Positions 1,888-63,588 of a stretch of 64,000 nucleotides of DNA are shown here, in pieces. Origin of the DNA: Parcubacteria group bacterium Gr01-1014_3 (GTDB lineage Bacteria; Patescibacteriota; Minisyncoccia; UBA6257; WO2-44-18). The position numbers were made by a program, and so were the translations under genes. Position 1 is the first letter of the stretch, and the number at the start of each line of letters is the position of its first letter. The notes under the pieces were generated by a model. The model ran no database searches and was not told where the DNA came from. It saw only the letters and a list, made by a program, of their open reading frames with translations. The DNA lies in contig VMGF01000002.1 of the NCBI GenBank assembly GCA_007376445.1, positions 13,673 to 77,672 of the forward strand, in the 5' to 3' direction.

Positions 1888-3363
1888 ATGACCGCGAATT
1901 GGGGAGACGTCGTTTTGAAATTTAATAAAGTCAGCTTTGCCTATGGACCGAAGAAAACCATTTTGGATTCGGTTGATTTTGTTATCCGCGAAAGAGCCAA
2001 GCTTACCCTGATGGGGCAGAACGGCGCCGGCAAGTCCACTATTTTTAAATTGATCTCTAAAGAGATTCAGCCGGAGGAGGGTTCGATCAATATTAAAACC
2101 GGCGCCACGATTGCTACTTCGATGCAGGTGATACCAAAAGATTGGATGAATGACACCGTGATCCAGTACTTTGAGCGCGCTTTTTCTAAAAAAGTTTATG
2201 ACATTGAGCCTCGCATCAATAAGATATTGAATGTAGTTAACCTGAAAGCGGACCTGAAGAAAAAAATGAATCAGTTCTCCGGCGGCCAACAGGCTCGTTT
2301 GCTTTTGGCTTTCGCCCTCATTCAGAACCCAGACATTCTTTTATTGGATGAGCCTACTAATAATCTCGATAAAGTCGGCATTGAGCATCTGACCAAATTT
2401 TTGATTGAGTATTCTAAGACCTGCGTGGTTATTTCTCACGACGCGCACTTTCTGAACTCATTCACCCACGGAGTTTTATATTTAGATAATTTTAGCGGTA
2501 AGGTTGAGCAGTATGTCGGTGACTATATGAAAGTAGTAGCGGAAATCGCTATACGAATCGAGCGTGAGCGGAAAAAGAACGCGATGTTAAAAAAGGATAT
2601 AGAGAACCGCAAAGAGCAGATGAATTATTTCGCGCAAAAAGGTGGAAAAATGCGTGATGTCGCGAGGAAAATGCGGGAAGCTATCCAAGAACTCGAATCC
2701 CAGCTGGTGGATCTCCGTCAAGAAGATAAAACCATCAAAGATTTCATTATTCCAGTGCAGTCTTTTGAGGGATCGGAGCGTCCGGACTGGAAGATTGTGG
2801 AGATAAAGGCGGTGAATATCATGACGACCGGCAAGCCGTCGGCGAAGAAGGTAAATATCGTTTTAAAGCGGAAAGAGAAGCTTTTGATATCTGGCCCTAA
2901 TGGTATCGGCAAAAGCACTCTACTGGAGGCTTTAGCGAGTGGTAAGGCTAAGGGTATGGGTATCTCCGATGACATTAAGATCGGATATTATAAGCAGGAC
3001 TTTTCCGGTCTGGATTTTGACGAGACGGTTTACAAAACCCTCTCGGACGCGATGACCGGCGGTTCGGATCAGGAACTACGTTCGGCGGCCGCCCAATTTT
3101 TACTGGACGCTGATCTATTGAATAATAAAGTGGGCTCGCTTTCCGAAGGTCAAAAAGGACTGCTTTCTTTCGCACGATTTGTTCTGCAGCGACCTGGCTT
3201 ATTGATCATGGATGAGCCGACTAATCACATCAACTTCCGCCACTTGCCAGCGGTCGCCAAGGCTTTAGATAAGTTTGAAGGCGCGTTGATTCTCGTTAGT
3301 CACTCGCCAGAGTTTATCAAGCAGATCAATATTGATCATAAATTGGACCTTGGGGATTTATAA
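1888..3363 (+). CDS. ABC-F family ATPase (two tandem ABC domains, no TMD)
   Basis: Two Walker A motifs (GQNGAGKST, GPNGIGKST). Two signature motifs (FSGGQQARL, LSEGQKGLL). Two Walker B motifs (LLLDEPTN, LIMDEPTN). Confidence 0.8.
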   Translation: MTANWGDVVLKFNKVSFAYGPKKTILDSVDFVIRERAKLTLMGQNGAGKSTIFKLISKEIQPEEGSINIKTGATIATSMQVIPKDWMNDTVIQYFERAFSKKVYDIEPRINKILNVVNLKADLKKKMNQFSGGQQARLLLAFALIQNPDILLLDEPTNNLDKVGIEHLTKFLIEYSKTCVVISHDAHFLNSFTHGVLYLDNFSGKVEQYVGDYMKVVAEIAIRIERERKKNAMLKKDIENRKEQMNYFAQKGGKMRDVARKMREAIQELESQLVDLRQEDKTIKDFIIPVQSFEGSERPDWKIVEIKAVNIMTTGKPSAKKVNIVLKRKEKLLISGPNGIGKSTLLEALASGKAKGMGISDDIKIGYYKQDFSGLDFDETVYKTLSDAMTGGSDQELRSAAAQFLLDADLLNNKVGSLSEGQKGLLSFARFVLQRPGLLIMDEPTNHINFRHLPAVAKALDKFEGALILVSHSPEFIKQINIDHKLDLGDL

Positions 3364-3365
3364 AA

Positions 3366-3497
3366 CCGAAACTAACTCTTTTTCAGAACCAGAATAACCG
3401 GCCTCCAGCGGGCCGGTTTTCTTCTCTCTCGGTGGTTTTTAAACCAAGCAAAACCGCCTCCGAGATGTTCCGAAAAAGAGTTAGTTTCGGTTTTTTT
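3366..3497. repeat. structured ~130-nt repeat / candidate ncRNA, copy 1 (long closing helix, internal hairpins, 3' T-run)
   Basis: ccgaaactaactcttttt at 3366-3383 pairs with aaaaagagttagtttcgg at 3473-3490. Internal hairpin ccggcctccagcgggccgg. Homologous copy at 39574-39724. Confidence 0.5.
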
Positions 3498-4528: not shown

Positions 4529-4602
4529 TGGCTGGGGGGCTAGGAATCGAACCTAGATCTGCTGCTCCAAAGGCAGCCGTGTTACCATTGCACTACCCCC
4601 CA
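4529..4602 (-). tRNA. tRNA-Gln (anticodon UUG)
   Basis: The reverse complement folds as a cloverleaf. Acceptor stem UGGGGGG/CCCCCCA with U1-A72, G73 and encoded CCA. Anticodon stem GCUGC/GCAGC with loop CUUUGGA. T-arm CUAGG-UUCGAUU-CCUAG. Confidence 0.85.
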
Positions 4603-13413: not shown

Positions 13414-13524
13414 TAATTTTAAATTCTAAATTTTTAATTTTAATTCAATGACCAAATGTTAAATTTCAAAATTAAATCATTGAAAATTAATTTAAAATTT
13501 ATAATTCAAAATTTAAAATTATTC
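13414..13524. repeat. AT-rich ~110-bp intergenic repeat, copy B
   Basis: taattcaatgaccaaatgttaaatttcaaaattaaatcattgaaaattaatttaaaatttataattcaaaatttaaaatta matches copy A almost base for base. Confidence 0.6.
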
Positions 13525-16274: not shown

Positions 16275-17414
16275 ATGGCAAAGATTAGAATCGCGATGGT
16301 TGGCGGGGGAACCGGCGGGCATATTTATCCGATCGTTTCTGTCGCGGAAAAACTGAAAACTTGGTCTCAAAAGAGCGGAGTGGATATGGATATCCGCTAT
16401 TTTGGTCAGCCCGAGTCGTACGGCCAGCTTCTGGATATTTATGGTGTTCGCGTGGTGAAGATCGCCTCCAGCAAGCTTCGCCGGTATTTTTCTGTATTGA
16501 ATATCCTGGATTTCTTTAAATTTTTCATCGGCTTCGCGCAGAGTTTGGTTAAATTATATTTTTATATGCCGGACGTGCTTTTCTCCAAGGGCGGCCCGGG
16601 ATCTTTTTCGGTGATTTTGGCAGCCCGATGTTATTTTATTCCGATCGTCGTGCATGAATCTGACGCTATTCCTGGCTTGGCGAATAAATTGGCGAGCCGG
16701 TTCGCTAAAGTCATTGATCTGGCTTTCGCGAACGCCCGGCCACATTTTCAAGGCCGTAAGGCCCAGGTCAATCTGGTTGGAAATCCGGTCAGAGAGGATG
16801 TCTTAACAGAAATGCCCCGAGAACAAGCAAAGGTAGCCTTTGGGTTTGATCCGCAAAAACCGCTGATCTTCGTGATCGGTGGTTCGCAGGGCTCTACGAG
16901 ATTAAATGAGTTCATTTTAGATAATCTGGAGCCGCTTTTATTTAAATTCCAGGTATTGCATCAAGTAGGAAAAGATAATTTGAATGATTATCAAAAACAG
17001 TATAATTTTGTTACCAAAAACTTTTCTCCAGCTTTGACGCAAAACTATAAATTTGTTGGGTATTTGGAAAAAGATCAGTCTAAGGCCTTAGACGCGGCCG
17101 ATATGGTGATCTCGCGAGGTGGAGCTGGGGCAATTTTCGAGATCGCCGCTAAGGGTAAGCCATCTATTTTAGTTCCGCTTCCGGAATCCGCGGCGGATCA
17201 TCAACGACAGAATGCTTATGAGTATTCAGAAAAAGGCGCCGCCATTGTCATCGAAGAGAGTAATCTTTTACCGACCGTTCTCATCGGCCAGATCGAAAAG
17301 ATATTGCAAAATCCGGAACAAATCGCCAGAATGTCGGCAGCGGCGAAAAGCTTCTATCAACCGGAGTCCGCTAACCAGATCGCCATGCATATTTTGGAAC
17401 AATGGGTGGAGTAA
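16275..17414 (+). CDS. murG: UDP-GlcNAc:lipid I N-acetylglucosaminyltransferase
   Basis: GGGTGGHIYP N-terminal motif. GT28 C-terminal domain (ISRGGAGAIFE). Confidence 0.9.
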   Translation: MAKIRIAMVGGGTGGHIYPIVSVAEKLKTWSQKSGVDMDIRYFGQPESYGQLLDIYGVRVVKIASSKLRRYFSVLNILDFFKFFIGFAQSLVKLYFYMPDVLFSKGGPGSFSVILAARCYFIPIVVHESDAIPGLANKLASRFAKVIDLAFANARPHFQGRKAQVNLVGNPVREDVLTEMPREQAKVAFGFDPQKPLIFVIGGSQGSTRLNEFILDNLEPLLFKFQVLHQVGKDNLNDYQKQYNFVTKNFSPALTQNYKFVGYLEKDQSKALDAADMVISRGGAGAIFEIAAKGKPSILVPLPESAADHQRQNAYEYSEKGAAIVIEESNLLPTVLIGQIEKILQNPEQIARMSAAAKSFYQPESANQIAMHILEQWVE

Positions 17415-17453
17415 TCGCGAATATACAAATAAAAGATTAATATTGCGAATAAT
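17408..17453. repeat. conserved 46-nt intergenic element, copy a (GGAGTAATCGCGAATATACAAATAAAAGATTAATATTGCGAATAA)
   Basis: Near-identical to 30198-30245 and to the reverse complement of 63542-63588. Contains GCGAATA twice, ~30 nt apart. Confidence 0.6.
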
Positions 17454-21078: not shown

Positions 21079-21134
21079 CGATTTTGTACATTATCGAGTA
21101 TCATTTATACTTAATACTAAATAAACACAGAACA

Positions 21135-21235
21135 ATTTTAAGTTTACAATTTTAAATTTTAATTTAATGTTCAAATTACAAAATTTAGAAATTAATCATT
21201 AATTAAAAATTGATAATTAAAAATTGAAAATTTCT
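21135..21235. repeat. diverged copy of AT-rich intergenic repeat (E)
   Basis: ttttaatttaatgttcaaattacaaaatttagaaattaatcattaattaaaaattgataattaaaaattgaaaattt aligns with the core of copies A and D. Ends at the greA start. Confidence 0.4.
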
Positions 21236-21244
21236 TAAAAACAT

Positions 21245-29733: not shown

Positions 29734-30204
29734 TTGTCATCGTTATCGTCATTTGCATACCAGGTAGTGAAAACTCGAGTGATGCATGGTGGTCTTGCTC
29801 GAGTTTCTACTACCTGGCATAGTTTCCGTATAATGATGCGCTTTCCAAAGAATAGTCGGGAATACCACTGGACCAGCCACATCAAGGGCAAGATGGTTTT
29901 TTACCAGATCTCCGAGCAGAAAATTAAGACTATTTTAAAGTCTCCTAGCCGGAAAGAGATCGGCATCGCGCCGGAGACTTCGGCCTTTATGAAAAGAAAT
30001 GATACTCCAAAGCGAAAGCAAGAGATATGGGTGATGTTCGCGAACAATAAAAATTCCAAGCTGGAAAAAGTTAGCGCCAAAACTATTATGATCAGCGCTT
30101 GGCGGTATCCGGGCATTAGCAAGGCAGGCGATGCGATTCCTGTGCCGGAAGATATTTTGGCGGAATTAAGAGATCAGAATACTTGGCTTGGGCATCTGGA
30201 GTAA
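29734..30204 (+). CDS. hypothetical protein (start codon uncertain)
   Basis: The ORF spans hairpin R3. A downstream Met (MMRFPK… or MVFYQ…) is the more likely start. No domain recognised. Confidence 0.35.
   Translation: MSSLSSFAYQVVKTRVMHGGLARVSTTWHSFRIMMRFPKNSREYHWTSHIKGKMVFYQISEQKIKTILKSPSRKEIGIAPETSAFMKRNDTPKRKQEIWVMFANNKNSKLEKVSAKTIMISAWRYPGISKAGDAIPVPEDILAELRDQNTWLGHLE
29760..29817. repeat. conserved 20-bp-stem hairpin element, copy R3
   Basis: ccaggtagtgaaaactcgag…ctcgagtttctactacctgg. Both arm positions are substituted together relative to R1 and R2. Confidence 0.6.
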
Positions 30205-30245
30205 TCGCGAATATACAAATAAAAGATTTAATATTGCGAATAATA
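30198..30245. repeat. conserved 46-nt intergenic element, copy b
   Basis: ggagtaatcgcgaatatacaaataaaagatttaatattgcgaataata. Includes the stop codon of the upstream ORF. Confidence 0.6.
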
Positions 30246-30247
30246 AT

Positions 30248-36861: not shown

Positions 36862-37613
36862 TTAAGAACTAAACTCCGATTTGATGTAGTTTTCGAGAGT
36901 GGTCAAATCAAAGCTCGCGATTAATCTACATTCCTTACCATCCCAGCCGATAACTAAGGGGTCTATATTTAGACGACCCTCTTCCCAGGCGGCTTCTGTG
37001 ACGACAAAAACTTTATGCACATGCCATTTAGTATGTCCATTCGTTGTACACTCAGTAAAATCAAGTTGTTTAAATTCTTCTCTCGCAGTAAGAATTTTTT
37101 CACGAATTTCATATGGAATAAGCCCCTTGAATTCCATTGCCAAGTTCAATCCTCTACTTTTAGAGGGTACTATTTGAACTAAACCATCCAACATAGCCTC
37201 GCGGATAGCGTATGGCAGTCCCATGGGATATCTGATATAACTACTATTCTCTATTTGGCATACTGCTTCATAGTCATGTTCGGCGAATGGATCAAAAATC
37301 GCCAAACTTGGGAATCCCTTTTTATTTCTCCACTTAAAAACATGCGTGGAAAGCTTAGTGGGATACTTGAGTGAAATCTTTTGTTTAATTAGCTTCGGCA
37401 GGCGATTATCTATGGATTCAATACTCTTTCTGATTTTTGTTTTAGCGTGGAATTCAATTGCTAATAGCTGGTCGAGCTTCCTCTCTAAAAATTGCTTTTC
37501 TTTTATCAACTTATCGATTTCATCAATAACTTCTTCTAACTTCTCTTTCTGACTAACTTCTTTTGAGCAATACTTCAATGCCTCTTTAATAGGATTAGTA
37601 GTAATTTCGGTCA
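36862..37613 (-). CDS. hypothetical protein (~250 aa), N-terminal coiled coil
   Basis: Start trimmed to ATG at complement 37611-37613 after a gccgaaaggcagaagggagc leader (MTEITTNPIKE…). Confidence 0.4.
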
Positions 37614-37917
37614 TCGCTAGCTCCCTTCTGCCTTTCGGCATGTAAATGAACTTGCAATAAAATACCATTTTATATGGATTACGTCAATTCAAAGAAAACG
37701 CCCATCTCCACAAGGGGACAGGCGTTTTCTAAGAATAAAATATTCACAACGAGAAATTATCTGTCCCTAATGGGTTGGATTTAGCACCTTACGGTAAAGC
37801 AGGTTGCTGGAGCTTCATAGGGCCAAGACCCTCGGCTCACTCTTGATAATATTTCGTTGTCAAAGTTCAAGTGCTTATTACAACCGCTATCCTATCAGAT
37901 TGGTTTCCTTAGGTCAA

Positions 37918-38423: not shown

Positions 38424-39494
38424 ATGAAATTAAGTATCGGCATCGTGGGGTTGCCAAACGTCGGTAAGTCCACCTTGTTTAAAATCCTCACGAAAAACGA
38501 GGTAAATATCGCCAATTATCCATTCTGCACCATTGATCCGAATGTGGGTGTGGTTAGCGTACCCGATGAACGGCTGGATCAGCTCGCCAAGATGAGTAAG
38601 TCGGCTAAGATCATCCCAGCGATCGTGGAATTTTATGATATTGCCGGTCTGGTCAAAGGCGCTAACAAAGGCGAAGGTTTAGGTAATCAGTTTTTAACTC
38701 ACATCCGCGAAACCGACGCGATCGTAATGGTACTCCGGGTATTTAAAAATGAAGAAATCATCCACGTGGAAAATTCCGTGGATCCGATCCGCGATATGGA
38801 AATCATCAACACCGAGCTAGCCCTGAAGGACTTGGAATCGGTGGAAAAACTTTATAAAAAAGCGGAAGGCGAGTCTAAGATCGGCGGTACGCCGGCGCAA
38901 AAACAAGCAATTAAAGATTTTGAAGCCGTCAAAAAAATTAAATCAGTCCTGGAAGCCGGTCAAAATTTAAATACTCCGGAATTTGCCGAAGCCTTGGAGA
39001 ACGAAAAAGTTGCCGCGTTAAATTTGCTCTCCGGAAAAAAGCAGATCTATTTACTCAACGGAAAACTCGAAGATGTCTCCGAAGAATTAAAAAAGAAGAT
39101 CGCGGAGAGGCTTGCCCGCAGTAGCTTCAGCGAAGGCGGGGGAGGATATGTGATTATGGATTTATCTATAGCCACCGATATACCGGAGCTAGTTAAAAAG
39201 GCCTACGAAGTGCTCGGCCTAATCAGCTTCTTTACCACGGGCGAAGATGAGACCCGCGCCTGGACTATTAAGAAAAACAGCAAAGCTTCGCAAGCCGCTG
39301 GCGCGATCCATACTGATTTTGAAAAGAAATTCATCCGCGCGGAAGTAGTTAACTGGCAAAAATTACTCGAAGCCCATTCGGCGAGCTCAGGGCAAGCCGG
39401 TTGGTCCGCCGCCAAACAAAAAGGCTGGATGCGTTTAGAGGGTAAGGACTATATCGTACAGGATGGCGATGTTATGGAGATTAGGCATGGCTAG
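38424..39494 (+). CDS. ychF: ribosome-binding ATPase YchF (Obg family)
   Basis: GIVGLPNVGKSTLF. TGS-like C-terminus. ~356 aa. Confidence 0.9.
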   Translation: MKLSIGIVGLPNVGKSTLFKILTKNEVNIANYPFCTIDPNVGVVSVPDERLDQLAKMSKSAKIIPAIVEFYDIAGLVKGANKGEGLGNQFLTHIRETDAIVMVLRVFKNEEIIHVENSVDPIRDMEIINTELALKDLESVEKLYKKAEGESKIGGTPAQKQAIKDFEAVKKIKSVLEAGQNLNTPEFAEALENEKVAALNLLSGKKQIYLLNGKLEDVSEELKKKIAERLARSSFSEGGGGYVIMDLSIATDIPELVKKAYEVLGLISFFTTGEDETRAWTIKKNSKASQAAGAIHTDFEKKFIRAEVVNWQKLLEAHSASSGQAGWSAAKQKGWMRLEGKDYIVQDGDVMEIRHG

Positions 39495-39503
39495 ACTTAT
39501 TGG

Positions 39504-39539
39504 GTCTATAGGCTAATTCGCACGAATTAGCCTATAGAC
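39504..39539. repeat. perfect 36-bp palindrome (gtctataggctaattcg·cac·gaattagcctatagac)
   Basis: Read directly from the sequence. No flanking T-run on the + strand. Confidence 0.6.
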
Positions 39540-39573
39540 GGGGTAATGGAAATCCGTCATGGATAAGGGCTCC

Positions 39574-39724
39574 AGCCAACTATTTTTTCGGAAACAGAAT
39601 AATCCGGCTCCAGCAGCCGGATTTTCTTCGCCCTCGGCACGCCGCTCCGACCTAATAGGTCGGAGACCGATTATAGGATAGTCCAGCCGGCGCGCCTCCG
39701 GGATGTTCCGAAAAATTAGTTGTC
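39574..39724. repeat. structured ~150-nt repeat / candidate ncRNA, copy 2
   Basis: The 5' 60 nt and 3' 25 nt align with 3366-3497. Stem-preserving changes in the ccggcYccagcRgccgg hairpin. Variable middle. Confidence 0.5.
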
Positions 39725-39764
39725 CTCCGCCTTGTTAAATAAAGGAAAATTTTTAAATTAAAAA

Positions 39765-39801
39765 GACCCGCAAGGCTGTGATACAGCTAACCTTGCGGGT
39801 C
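39765..39801 (-). terminator. rho-independent terminator
   Basis: gacccgcaagg…ccttgcgggtc followed by a T-run on the minus strand. Confidence 0.65.
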
Positions 39802-39820
39802 TCACCGGGTTGGAGGCGGT

Positions 39821-40093
39821 TTAGGCGACTTGCCGGGTCGATTCGTCTTCGTCGAGAAGGCTCTTCACGTCCTCGACGCTCTTGAAATCGGTCACCAGAG
39901 TCGTCCAGCCTTCGAGTTCGGAAAGGGTGATCAACACCCTCTTGCCGAGCTTCTCTTCGATGTACGGCGGATACTCTCGATCCTTGGGCTTGCGGAACGT
40001 CATCGTCACCGGCCTCGACCTGTTGTCCTTGTCACCGGCGTCGCGGCCACCACAAAGTAGCACTTCCAGCGCGCCAAACATGAGCTTCTTCAT
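39821..40093 (-). CDS. small secreted/lipoprotein-like hypothetical protein
   Basis: MKKLMFGALEVLLCGG signal/lipobox-like N-terminus. RBS GGAGGT. Terminator downstream. Confidence 0.4.
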   Translation of the reverse strand: MKKLMFGALEVLLCGGRDAGDKDNRSRPVTMTFRKPKDREYPPYIEEKLGKRVLITLSELEGWTTLVTDFKSVEDVKSLLDEDESTRQVA

Positions 40094-46071: not shown

Positions 46072-46185
46072 TAATTTTAAATTTTTGAATTATAAATTTT
46101 AAATTAATTTTTAATGATTTAATTTTGAAATTGAATATTTAGTCATTAAATTAAAATTAAAAATTTAGCATTTAAAATTATTAAA
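46072..46185. repeat. AT-rich ~110-bp intergenic repeat, copy C (inverted orientation)
   Basis: Reverse complement matches copy A nearly base for base. Confidence 0.6.
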
Positions 46186-46930: not shown

Positions 46931-46952
46931 CTGCCCCAATGGGCAGTTTTTA
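46929..46952 (+). terminator. rho-independent terminator
   Basis: ctgccccaatgggcag followed by TTTTTATTT. Confidence 0.7.
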
Positions 46953-46960
46953 TTTGCTTG

Positions 46961-47023
46961 CCAGGAAGTGAAAATTCGACTGTTTTGGACTCATTTCCGG
47001 ATGGTCGAATTTCTACTTCCTGG
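46961..47023. repeat. conserved 20-bp-stem hairpin element, copy R2
   Basis: ccaggaagtgaaaattcgac…gtcgaatttctacttcctgg. Both arms and the cttgccagg/cctggcttg flanks are near-identical to R1. Confidence 0.6.
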
Positions 47024-47090
47024 CTTGAATCCCGATGTAAACCAGAGTAAGATTATCTTTATCCGTTCCTTGAAAATAAAGGAGAAACAT

Positions 47091-52943: not shown

Positions 52944-53052
52944 GAATTTTAAATTTCCAATTTTAAATTTTAATTGAATGAATAAATTACAAAATTTGAG
53001 ATTTAATCATTGAAAATTAATTTAAAATTTATAATTAAAAATTGAAAATTAT
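52944..53052. repeat. AT-rich ~110-bp intergenic repeat, copy D (between adk and map)
   Basis: tcattgaaaattaatttaaaatttataattaaaaattgaaaatta is identical to the 3' half of copy A. Confidence 0.55.
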
Positions 53053-63537: not shown

Positions 63538-63541
63538 TTTG

Positions 63542-63588
63542 TTATTCGCAATATTAAATCTTTTATTTGTATATTCGCGATTACTCCT
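63542..63588. repeat. conserved 46-nt intergenic element, copy c (reverse orientation, between rplC and rplD)
   Basis: Reverse complement reads aggagtaatcgcgaatatacaaataaaagatttaatattgcgaataac, then the rplD ATG. Confidence 0.6.

Follow-up and report, generated by a model that had tools for sequence, protein, structure and literature searches.

The stretch of DNA analyzed here, 64,000 nucleotides of contig VMGF01000002.1 (positions 13,673 to 77,672) from the Parcubacteria group bacterium Gr01-1014_3 (the window), contains two copies of a structured palindromic repeat, the Y element, which forms a new, previously uncatalogued family among the dispersed palindromic repeats. Its fold is a three-way junction composed of a long closing stem (P1), a hairpin (P2) and an arm (P3) with a variable tip (P4). 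The interpretation that we favor, with little more than even confidence, is that the Y element is a non-autonomous mobile repeat whose folded single strand would be recognized by a trans-acting enzyme, and that in mRNAs it would be a passive, possibly consequential structure of the 3' untranslated region (3' UTR).

The first-pass annotation of the window had described a second copy of a structured element at 39574-39724, and these boundaries prove essentially correct (Table 1). When the window was scanned with the covariance model R1, whose seed alignment included both window copies, copy 2 scored 107.8 bits and copy 1 scored 106.4 bits, both of them matching model positions 1-125; the next match, with the reverse strand and all other window sites considered, reached 12.9 bits. 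Copies 1 and 2 are the sole members of the family in the window. The conserved (C/G)...(A/G) block noted by the annotation corresponds to 23 nt, CGCCTCCG(A/G)GATGTTCCGAAAAA, found at exactly two window sites (3455-3477 and 39693-39715, both on the + strand) and in none of 100 dinucleotide-preserving shuffles. Pairwise alignment of the copies gives two conserved flanks and a middle (39645-39687) that is exclusive to copy 2 and begins with a hairpin of its own, again as annotated. In P2, which reads AACCGGCC-UCCAGCG-GGCCGGUU in copy 1 and AAUCCGGC-UCCAGCA-GCCGGAUU in copy 2, three pairs differ on both sides and a U.G pair is replaced by U-A, with conservation of the loop. Copy 1 is the minimal form of the family: its P1, of 28 bp, extends from within the stop codon of an ABC-F gene to that of the convergent gene, and its P3 is capped by a 9-nt loop, AAACCAAGC, without P4. 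Predicted folding energies are -68.6 kcal/mol for copy 2 (z = -6.7 relative to shuffles) and -66.8 kcal/mol for copy 1 (z = -11.4). Chance or low-complexity similarity between the copies is excluded, with structure-plus-sequence scores above 100 bits for both.

The family was assembled by an exact-pattern scan of one genome per prokaryotic species, which returned 89 stretches, and then with R1, built from 69 sequences. A full-length R1 match comprises P1, P2 with its UCCAGC loop, P3 with its ACCAAGC loop and the 3' block CUSCGGGAUGUUC. On inspection, about 70 of the stretches were true members, all from assemblies of Patescibacteria, or candidate phyla radiation (CPR), including Colwell-, Harrison-, Wolfe-, Azam- and Brennerbacteria, 'Paceibacterota', and several metagenome-assembled genomes (MAGs) labelled Saccharibacteria. 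Pattern scans and R1 together yielded 107 members, all in Parcubacteria/CPR genomes and groundwater metagenomes; R1 detected 82 copies in genome loci and 26 in metagenome contigs, mostly of groundwater, and the 38 members outside the seed scored between 72.8 and 128.7 bits. None of the pattern matches from non-CPR genomes passed R1. With regard to a phage or plasmid origin, two pattern matches in IMG/VR failed R1, and BLAST searches against phage and plasmid collections returned nothing. Up to about 13 exact-pattern copies were found in a single MAG, and the density is roughly one copy per 20-30 kb, with tens of copies per ~1-Mb genome. MAGs labelled 'uncultured Candidatus Saccharibacteria' carry the element (CAZDBT01, CAZWVU01, CAZXNT01, CAYOSD01 and others, with loci L009, L014, L040, L077 among them). 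The taxonomic labels of these records are probably imprecise; as the YchF proteins attributed to two such members are 75-78% identical to that of the window, the family would appear to belong to one clade of Parcubacteria, which are ultra-small groundwater bacteria, rather than to several CPR classes. In searches of the whole window against Rfam 15 at gathering thresholds, only a SAM riboswitch and a tRNA were detected, both elsewhere, and permissive scans of copy 1, copy 2 and the best family member (L071) gave only chance-level matches of at most 21.6 bits, far below thresholds. Full-text literature searches on structured RNAs, repeats and miniature inverted-repeat transposable elements (MITEs) in Patescibacteria/CPR returned nothing that describes the Y element.

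On the described (+) strand, the 5' part of the family consensus consists of the 5' arm of P1 (...UUUCrGAAaC), followed by AGAA-U-AA-(P2 stem)-yUCCAGCGr-(P2 stem)-UU-UUCU and UCn, and the 3' part of CCC-UC-(P3b), P4, ACCAAGC, P3b, U(G/C)C-GGG, AU and the 3' arm of P1 (GUUC...). The P2 loop UCCAGC is invariant, and about 50 nt of junction and loop sequence are nearly so. The median P1 measures 25 bp and the longest 44 bp; for complete elements the median is 148 nt and the extremes are 107 and 206 nt. P3 encloses between 9 and 84 nt (median 24 nt); copy 1 is minimal in this respect (9 nt) and copy 2 is among the longer members (41 nt).

Covariation was measured on an alignment of 69 sequences with a hand-drawn structure and compared with 500 shuffles. 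Standard pairs occupy 89.6% of the cells, as against 71.0% in the shuffles and 43-55% when partners are slid by 1-3 columns. As many as 32 of the 41 pairs have changed on both sides, with 565 double-change cells for 176 expected, and no shuffle attained any of the observed covariation measures. P2 is 99.5% paired and P3b 92% paired, with 8 of 12 and 9 of 10 pairs covarying, respectively; the middle pair of P3a alternates (CCC/GGG, CGC/GCG, CUC/GAG), and even the lower P2 stem AGAA/UUCU, invariant at first sight, shows covariation among diverged members (L094 has GGCA/UGCC and L091 AGGA/UCCU). RNAalifold independently recovered P2, P3 and the inner part of P1, and in the 107-member alignment the column pairs with the highest mutual information are exactly the predicted helix pairs. 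The sole non-helical top pair outside the P4 region links the bulged P1 base to the third base of the P2-P3 junction, with a mutual information of 0.56. This support is stronger than that available for many curated RNA families, and the compensatory changes in P1, P2 and P3, found over 69 to 107 members, extend to the whole family the annotation's remark that the stem is kept while its sequence changes. Given some 50 nearly invariant nucleotides and stems whose pairing survives through compensatory changes, the folded single strand is likely to be recognized by a trans-acting protein encoded elsewhere in the genome.

The element is mostly intergenic, and it is found more often in convergent than in divergent regions. 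Relative to the element, the nearest genes are oriented (+,-) in 19 cases, (+,+) in 18, (-,-) in 17 and (-,+) in 7; there is no orientation preference in tandem regions. Clustering of 382 neighboring open reading frames (ORFs) identified no recurrent protein family beside the element, and the upstream genes are, by eye, assorted housekeeping genes, including those for EF-G, ClpP, a DnaN-like protein, RecQ, SMC, Hsp20 and RsmI. The best -35/-10 scores for sigma-70-like promoters on either flank equal those of shuffled sequence, and of the 69 copies, 14 on the + strand and 6 on the - strand have at least five T's in the 8 nt after P1; copy 2 has no such run and copy 1 has seven T's. The lack of promoter enrichment and these T-run counts indicate that the element is not an independent gene under a standard promoter, nor does it act generally as an intrinsic terminator. 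An elaborate, possibly bidirectional, intrinsic terminator would agree with the situation of copy 1, whose P1 is flanked by an A-run and the seven T's exactly between two convergent stop codons, and with the 19 convergent versus 7 divergent regions. However, separate canonical terminators adjoin the element in the window and in L091, and copies are found inside ORFs; the missing U-runs largely refute this explanation, which retains a minimal probability.

The annotated position of copy 2, after the + strand gene ychF and before a convergent gene, is confirmed, and the location past a co-directional gene generalizes to the family. The stop codons of co-directional upstream genes concentrate at the P1 base, between positions -23 and -46 relative to the junction, and L003 and L039, paralogs from a single genome, have in common even the TAG preceding P1. 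The canonical terminators of the window and of L091 lie beyond the element, and the + strand is therefore certainly part of the 3' UTR at these loci. A terminator census by a simple hairpin-plus-T-run finder, which addressed the question of the co-transcribed strand, detected few sites.

These features bear on a second interpretation, that of a dedicated functional RNA, be it a cis-acting 3'-UTR module involved in the decay, processing or termination of the upstream mRNA, or a protein-binding or catalytic non-coding RNA with the junction and loops as its core. It is unlikely, if far from negligible. It would account for the very strong covariation, the invariant junctions and loops, the two covarying junction nucleotides, the clustering of upstream stops at the base of P1 on the + side, the placement of the element between stop codon and canonical terminator at transcribed convergent loci, and the preservation of the copy that follows ychF over a long divergence, down to 78% YchF identity. 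On the other hand, orientation is random in tandem contexts (18 vs 17), promoters are not enriched on either flank, no gene family is associated with the element, and Rfam contains no match, ribozyme classes included. Furthermore, copies of both orientations are found in frame inside NifS, MnmA and ParB genes, P2 and P3 show no excess of G.U pairs over A.C mismatches, and the P1 wobbles favor the strand opposite to that transcribed in 3' UTRs. An RNA-only reading is thus not secure, because of the occurrence of both orientations, the copies inside ORFs, and the fact that the better-folding strand is the complement of the described one.

Several more specific identities were rejected. For a riboswitch or 5' leader, the orientations are mixed, convergent regions are favored and the neighboring genes are unrelated. 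No reverse transcriptase is found nearby and the copy number is far too high for the non-coding RNA of a retron. The flanking guide architecture of TnpB/IscB guide RNAs is missing, and the core is enclosed by P1; the upstream genes are of the wrong kind for the target hairpin of a diversity-generating retroelement. Finally, a small ORF was dismissed, as the AUG in GGGAUGUUC reads ACG in four members.

Which strand folds was addressed through the mismatches. G.U pairs and A.C mismatches are equally rare in P2 and P3, at about 2-3% each, a balance uncommon in RNAs that are selected on a single strand. In P1, there are 75 A.C mismatches versus 16 G.U pairs, and where U-A and C-G pairs alternate, the intermediate state is C.A and not U.G (17 vs 1 at one column). 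P1 also harbors a conserved tandem U.C/C.U mismatch, whose two positions are unpaired in 54 and 41 of the 69 cells. Read on the complementary strand, P1 displays G.U wobbles and tandem G.A/A.G pairs, both of which are stabilizing in RNA as well as in DNA. The complement folds better by 7.2 kcal/mol on average and in 62 of 69 copies (Wilcoxon p = 2e-11, for copies that are not independent); folded as DNA, the complement of copy 2 reaches -47.7 kcal/mol and the described strand -41.8 kcal/mol. Since this asymmetry is the same for all orientations of the flanking genes, it is a property of the element itself, not a consequence of transcription. We lean toward the complement of the described strand as the folded one, in the form of single-stranded DNA or RNA.

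A single-stranded DNA site used by the host for recombination, nicking or priming, along the lines of attC sites, repetitive extragenic palindromes (REPs) bound by REP-associated tyrosine transposases (RAYTs), oriT or single-strand origins, is distinctly unlikely. Its merits are that it would explain a strand asymmetry independent of the direction of transcription, P2 and P3 stems with Watson-Crick pairs only, and a variable tip with specific conserved mismatches as in attC and REP hairpins; the inversion of a whole element at one NifS site also fits recombination at or between arms. Nevertheless, the element does not contain the RYYYAAC...GTTRRRY consensus of the attC R/L boxes, none of the copies was seen to neighbor an integrase, a cassette array or a gene for a RAYT, a relaxase or a Rep protein, and tens of dispersed copies, some of them in essential genes, are hard to reconcile with the role of an origin or an oriT.

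Copies within genes were sought as ORFs spanning the element, and four loci were found in which it lies inside a long ORF with the reading frame intact. In L062 and L088, the element occupies the same site of a class-V aminotransferase gene (cysteine desulfurase, NifS/IscS) in opposite orientations, with the whole element, P1 included, inverted and the frame kept; the L088 protein has 58 residues where a solved structure of an IscS-type cysteine desulfurase has 5. In L075, the element splits the HUP domain of the tRNA thiouridylase MnmA in frame, and in L019 it is N-terminal to the ParB domains of the ORF. The predicted peptide of one such insert reads ...REKKIRPLEADYSGS.... In the family, stop codons are depleted: two of the + frames are open in 50-55% of the copies and the - frames in 24-34%; shuffled sequence gives 15%. 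Essential genes are not where one would find, in frame and in both orientations, a riboswitch, a terminator or a regulatory RNA of the 3' UTR. In-frame intragenic palindromic copies are a known signature of the Rickettsia palindromic elements (RPEs), and the in-frame copies of both orientations in essential genes argue for a selfish repeat of the RPE kind. This is a class of lifestyle and not of homology, to which the mostly intergenic distribution also corresponds, together with the in-frame copies in L062, L088, L075 and L019.

Removal from transcripts as an intron-like intervening sequence, for example by RNase III acting on P1 or by a splicing endonuclease and a ligase, would take advantage of the P1 duplex, of median length 25 bp, which joins the ends of the element, and would suit copies located within conserved NifS and MnmA domains, explaining why genes can tolerate them; unusual insertions are known from the rRNA genes of CPR bacteria. 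It is nonetheless very improbable. All the intragenic copies, found as they were through ORFs that span the element, keep the frame without stops, which splicing would not need, and the same NifS site holds both orientations. In addition, most copies are intergenic, and the genes flanking five tandem-context copies are, by eye, different genes and not halves of one.

Compared with solved structures, the cysteine desulfurase genes of L062 and L088 contain additional insertions. At L088:6140-6330 (-), residues 222-276 of the query align to 5 residues of the structure, and the DNA is another long palindrome (-61.8 kcal/mol, z = -4.65); its inner part is similar to the P3-P4 arm of a Y element, but P2 is missing. 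The NifS protein of L062 contains repeated NPQSSILN segments.

The history of the family joins long vertical persistence with gain, loss and exchange of modules between copies. The window, L090 (87% YchF identity) and L094 (78%) all carry a copy behind ychF at one and the same place, and these copies differ by many compensatory changes; L091-L093 (79-81% YchF identity) have none there, their ychF being followed by a plain hairpin and a different convergent gene. Conversely, L091 and L092 have a copy directly after the gene for a type IV secretion system coupling protein, which is missing at that place in L093, L094, L090 and the window. Two paralogs of one genome, L037 and L093:15937-16065, have P1, P3, P4 and short flanks in common and entirely different P2 stems, and the MAG C24_metabat.bin.189 contains about nine copies with a common P3 and differing P1 and P2. 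Copies, including those of a single genome, diverge in the outer part of P1 but keep a conserved interior. A rearranged copy is present at L034:5759-5887, in which a 5' half (P1, P2 and the start of P3) is followed by the inverted 3' half of another element, an arrangement that suggests recombination between copies.

A second structured repeat, element B, is located 30-90 nt downstream of the Y element at several loci (L009:2528-2645 and L067:3905-4010, as well as L022, L032 and L049) and is not present in the window. It is made up of a long stem, a conserved internal loop (CUGAAACCUUAACGGAAGCGCA / GUGAGCGGGUUGAAGAAAU) and a variable apical hairpin, and has a tandem G.A/A.G mismatch on the strand where the Y element has U.C/C.U. 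In a subfamily (L001, L010, L033, L036, L053, L063, L072 and L087), a whole Y element replaces the apical hairpin of element B, forming a nested composite. In L009, the P4 tip of the Y element, cccagcacataa...ttatgtgctggg, is the same small hairpin as that capping the neighboring element B. Small hairpins thus appear to move between the tips of larger ones. The suggestion accompanying the first annotation, that the variable middle be examined as an insertion-prone loop, is supported by the identity of the two caps in L009, which speaks for a tip of the Y element that accepts insertions, and by the range of its length.

In the mobile-repeat interpretation, copies would have been duplicated to new sites, swapping modules with one another, and would have survived where their harm is small, mostly just past stop codons, and occasionally in frame inside genes, where they would presumably be translated. 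The folded single strand would be bound by the trans-acting protein, and read-through from the upstream gene would turn the element into a passive, very stable 3'-UTR structure, with a possible incidental effect on mRNA decay or translation termination. The mechanism of mobility, the recognizing enzyme and the DNA or RNA nature of the folded molecule are the parts of this scheme that we infer.

Several observations weigh against it. On the + side, 26 of 43 co-directional upstream stops lie no more than 45 nt from the inner stem, compared with 6 of 40 on the - side, and this orientation-linked placement hints at a role at the mRNA level or at a targeting rule. No target-site duplication was detected, the longest k-mer common to both flanks averaging 3.64 nt versus 3.48 nt for randomly paired flanks, with P1 boundaries fuzzy enough for very short duplications to be possible; conserved terminal repeats are likewise lacking, and the Y element is therefore not a classical cut-and-paste MITE. 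No mobilizing enzyme was identified, nor was an exact empty site with matching flanks recovered; mobility is deduced from presence and absence between substantially diverged genomes. The near-invariance of about 50 nt across lineages with 65-80% YchF identity exceeds that of usual selfish repeats, and would equally fit a host-beneficial RNA or ribonucleoprotein. The U.G pair that closes the P2 loop (67 of 69 members) and the A-rich ACCAAGC loop look more RNA-like on the described strand. Lastly, the translation of the intragenic copies is presumed from preserved frames, in copies that came from a search for ORFs spanning the element.

It is also conceivable, in our view rather improbably, that the element is the recognition module of an undescribed CPR nucleic-acid system, either as the Y-shaped single-stranded DNA or RNA substrate of a new mobilization or recombination enzyme, or as a new structured or catalytic RNA. 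The new enzyme would copy and invert structured hairpins and nest them into the tips of other hairpins and into genes; alternatively, a new class of RNA would allow copies inside essential genes to be tolerated. The near-invariant junctions and loops, the covarying junction bases, the conserved tandem mismatches, the nested composites with element B and the orientation-dependent placement of stop codons make the data compatible with such a module.

Table 1. Features of the two Y elements and of the surroundings of copy 2 (window coordinates).
Feature	Position	Strand	Basis and remarks
Copy 2	39577-39722	+	Base of P1; possible distal extension 39567-39731; covariance model gives 39579-39721
Copy 2, P1 5' arm CAACTAtTTTTTCGGAAaC	39577-39595	+	Pairs with 39705-39722; folding and covariation (14/16 P1 pairs changed on both sides)
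Copy 2, P2	39596-39627	+	Lower stem AGAA/UUCU with bulged U 39600; upper stem AAUCCGGC/GCCGGAUU; loop UCCAGCA 39609-39615
Copy 2, P2-P3 junction strand UCG	39628-39630	+	Third base covaries with bulged P1 base 39594
Copy 2, P3 5' side	39631-39644	+	P3a CCC 39631-39633, internal loop UC, P3b GGCACGCCG 39636-39644; pairs with 39688-39702
Copy 2, P4 apical hairpin CTCCGACC-TAATA-GGTCGGAG	39645-39665	+	Folding; similar YCCGAC...GUCGGR tips in L003, L039, L061, L090
Copy 2, extra segment	39666-39687	+	Small hairpin GAUUAU-AGG-AUAGUC; ends in CCAGC, local version of the conserved ACCAAGC loop motif
Copy 2, P3 3' side CGGCGCGCC, loop UCC, GGG and junction AU	39688-39704	+	Within block conserved with copy 1
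Copy 2, P1 3' arm GTTCCGAAAAAtTAGTTG	39705-39722	+	Folding, block conservation, covariation
Copy 1	3362-3494	+	Minimal form of the family; folding, 106.4 bits, minimal tip length
ychF	38424-39494	+	Upstream of copy 2
Spacer from ychF stop to copy 2	39495-39573	+	About 80 nt, outside the element; missing in orthologous locus L090
Terminator-like hairpin with U-run	39757-39807	-	Outside the element; belongs to the convergent gene, between that gene and copy 2
Convergent 90-aa ORF	39821-40093	-	Downstream of copy 2

A GAUUAUA motif at the site of the extra segment of copy 2 is also found in L029, L037, L081 and L090. In L090, the element begins directly after the ychF stop codon. The spacer present at this place in the window contains a perfect palindrome, tctataggctaattcg-cac-gaattagcctataga (39506-39539), which is unique in the window, and a relic of the last ychF codons and stop, gacggggtaatggaaatccgtcatggataa (~39541-39566); the present C-terminus of ychF (39462-39494) encodes the same peptide as the relic with different codons. 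The spacer looks like a small insertion that rebuilt the end of ychF.

Other repeats of the window are distinct from the Y element. A very AT-rich palindromic family of ~108 nt is intergenic, with copies 70-92% alike in both orientations (129-236, 1097-1164, 13415-13522, 21134-21241, 46074-46181 and 52945-53052). A hairpin repeat with arms CTTGCCAGGMAGTGAAAATTCGAC and GGTCGAATTTCTACTTCCTGGCTTG, the second arm being identical in two of its three copies, is found at 987-1069, 29749-29821 and 46950-47027, and a repeat of 31-49 nt, GGAGTAATCGCGAATATACAAATAAAAGATT..., at 17408-17438, 30198-30246 and 63539-63587 (98-100% identical, one copy inverted). The two Rfam matches are a SAM-I riboswitch (37754-37852, - strand, 69.7 bits), upstream of an ORF of 268 aa without a Pfam match (36862-37668), and a tRNA gene (4532-4602, - strand).

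CPR bacteria, or Patescibacteria, make up a large share of bacterial diversity, and to our knowledge almost nothing has been established about their non-coding DNA and mobile elements. If the Y element is selfish, even extremely streamlined symbiont genomes carry and tolerate structured repeats, including inside NifS/IscS and MnmA, in parallel with Rickettsia. If it has a host function, it represents a new, lineage-specific class of structured nucleic acid. In either case, it could serve as a marker for strain-level rearrangements, as a caution for gene callers with respect to inflated or interrupted ORFs, and as bait for the recognizing enzyme.

Among known systems, the structured RNAs of Rfam 15 resemble the Y element by their level of covariation and by three-way junctions with conserved junction strands, typical of riboswitches and small ribozymes; in contrast, none of them, with hammerhead, twister, twister-sister, pistol, hatchet and HDV-like ribozymes included, is even suggestive of it. 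By eye, no convincing match was found on either strand to hammerhead, twister or hairpin-ribozyme cores, T-loops or kink-turns (K-turns), and the hammerhead core motifs are absent; a K-turn was rejected because the P3 internal loop has 3 and 2 unpaired bases and a K-turn needs 5 and 2. Integron attC sites share with the Y element a conserved structure with variable stems, strand-specific folding marked by mismatches, a variable terminal structure and a location at the 3' ends of genes. Unlike them, the Y element lacks R''/R' core sites, an integrase and a cassette array, and it has an invariant interior and copies in ORFs. An attC identity was dismissed, as the inner P1 (...UUUCRGAAaC / GUUCYN...) does not fit RYYYAAC/GTTRRRY on either strand and no neighbor such as an integrase recurs. 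Classical MITEs, which depend on DDE transposases, have conserved terminal inverted repeats and generate target-site duplications, whereas in the Y element the termini of P1 vary, the interior is conserved and no duplication is detectable; on both grounds this identity was discarded.

The closer likenesses are with dispersed palindromes. Like the REPs, their doublets (REPINs) and their associated RAYTs, the Y element is extragenic, favors the 3' ends of genes in either orientation, is passively co-transcribed and persists vertically over long periods, and in both cases the imperfections of the hairpins mark one active strand and target-site duplications are lacking. However, REPs are hairpins of 20-40 nt with a conserved 5' tetranucleotide, and the Y element is larger and branched, with a conserved interior, so that it was not assigned to the REPs or REPINs. 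In the 64-kb window and the loci of 8-20 kb that were covered, neither a RAYT gene nor any other recurrent neighbor was found. ERIC/IRU, Correia (CREE), BOX and RUP are, like it, imperfect intergenic palindromes of 100-150 bp transcribed with their neighbors, and ERIC has variants with insertions at fixed internal sites, reminiscent of the variable P4 tip. RPEs offer the nearest parallel in lifestyle: both are gene-less palindromic repeats of ~100-150 bp, dispersed in the reduced genome of a host-dependent bacterium, stably folded, and located between genes as well as in frame inside conserved genes, to which they add a peptide segment. The two are unrelated in sequence and belong to different bacterial lineages, and RPEs are reportedly simple hairpins, whereas the Y element is a branched structure with ~50 near-invariant unpaired or junction nucleotides and a variable tip. 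What sets it apart from the other dispersed palindromic repeats is its three-way junction, its near-invariant interior and its nesting behavior.

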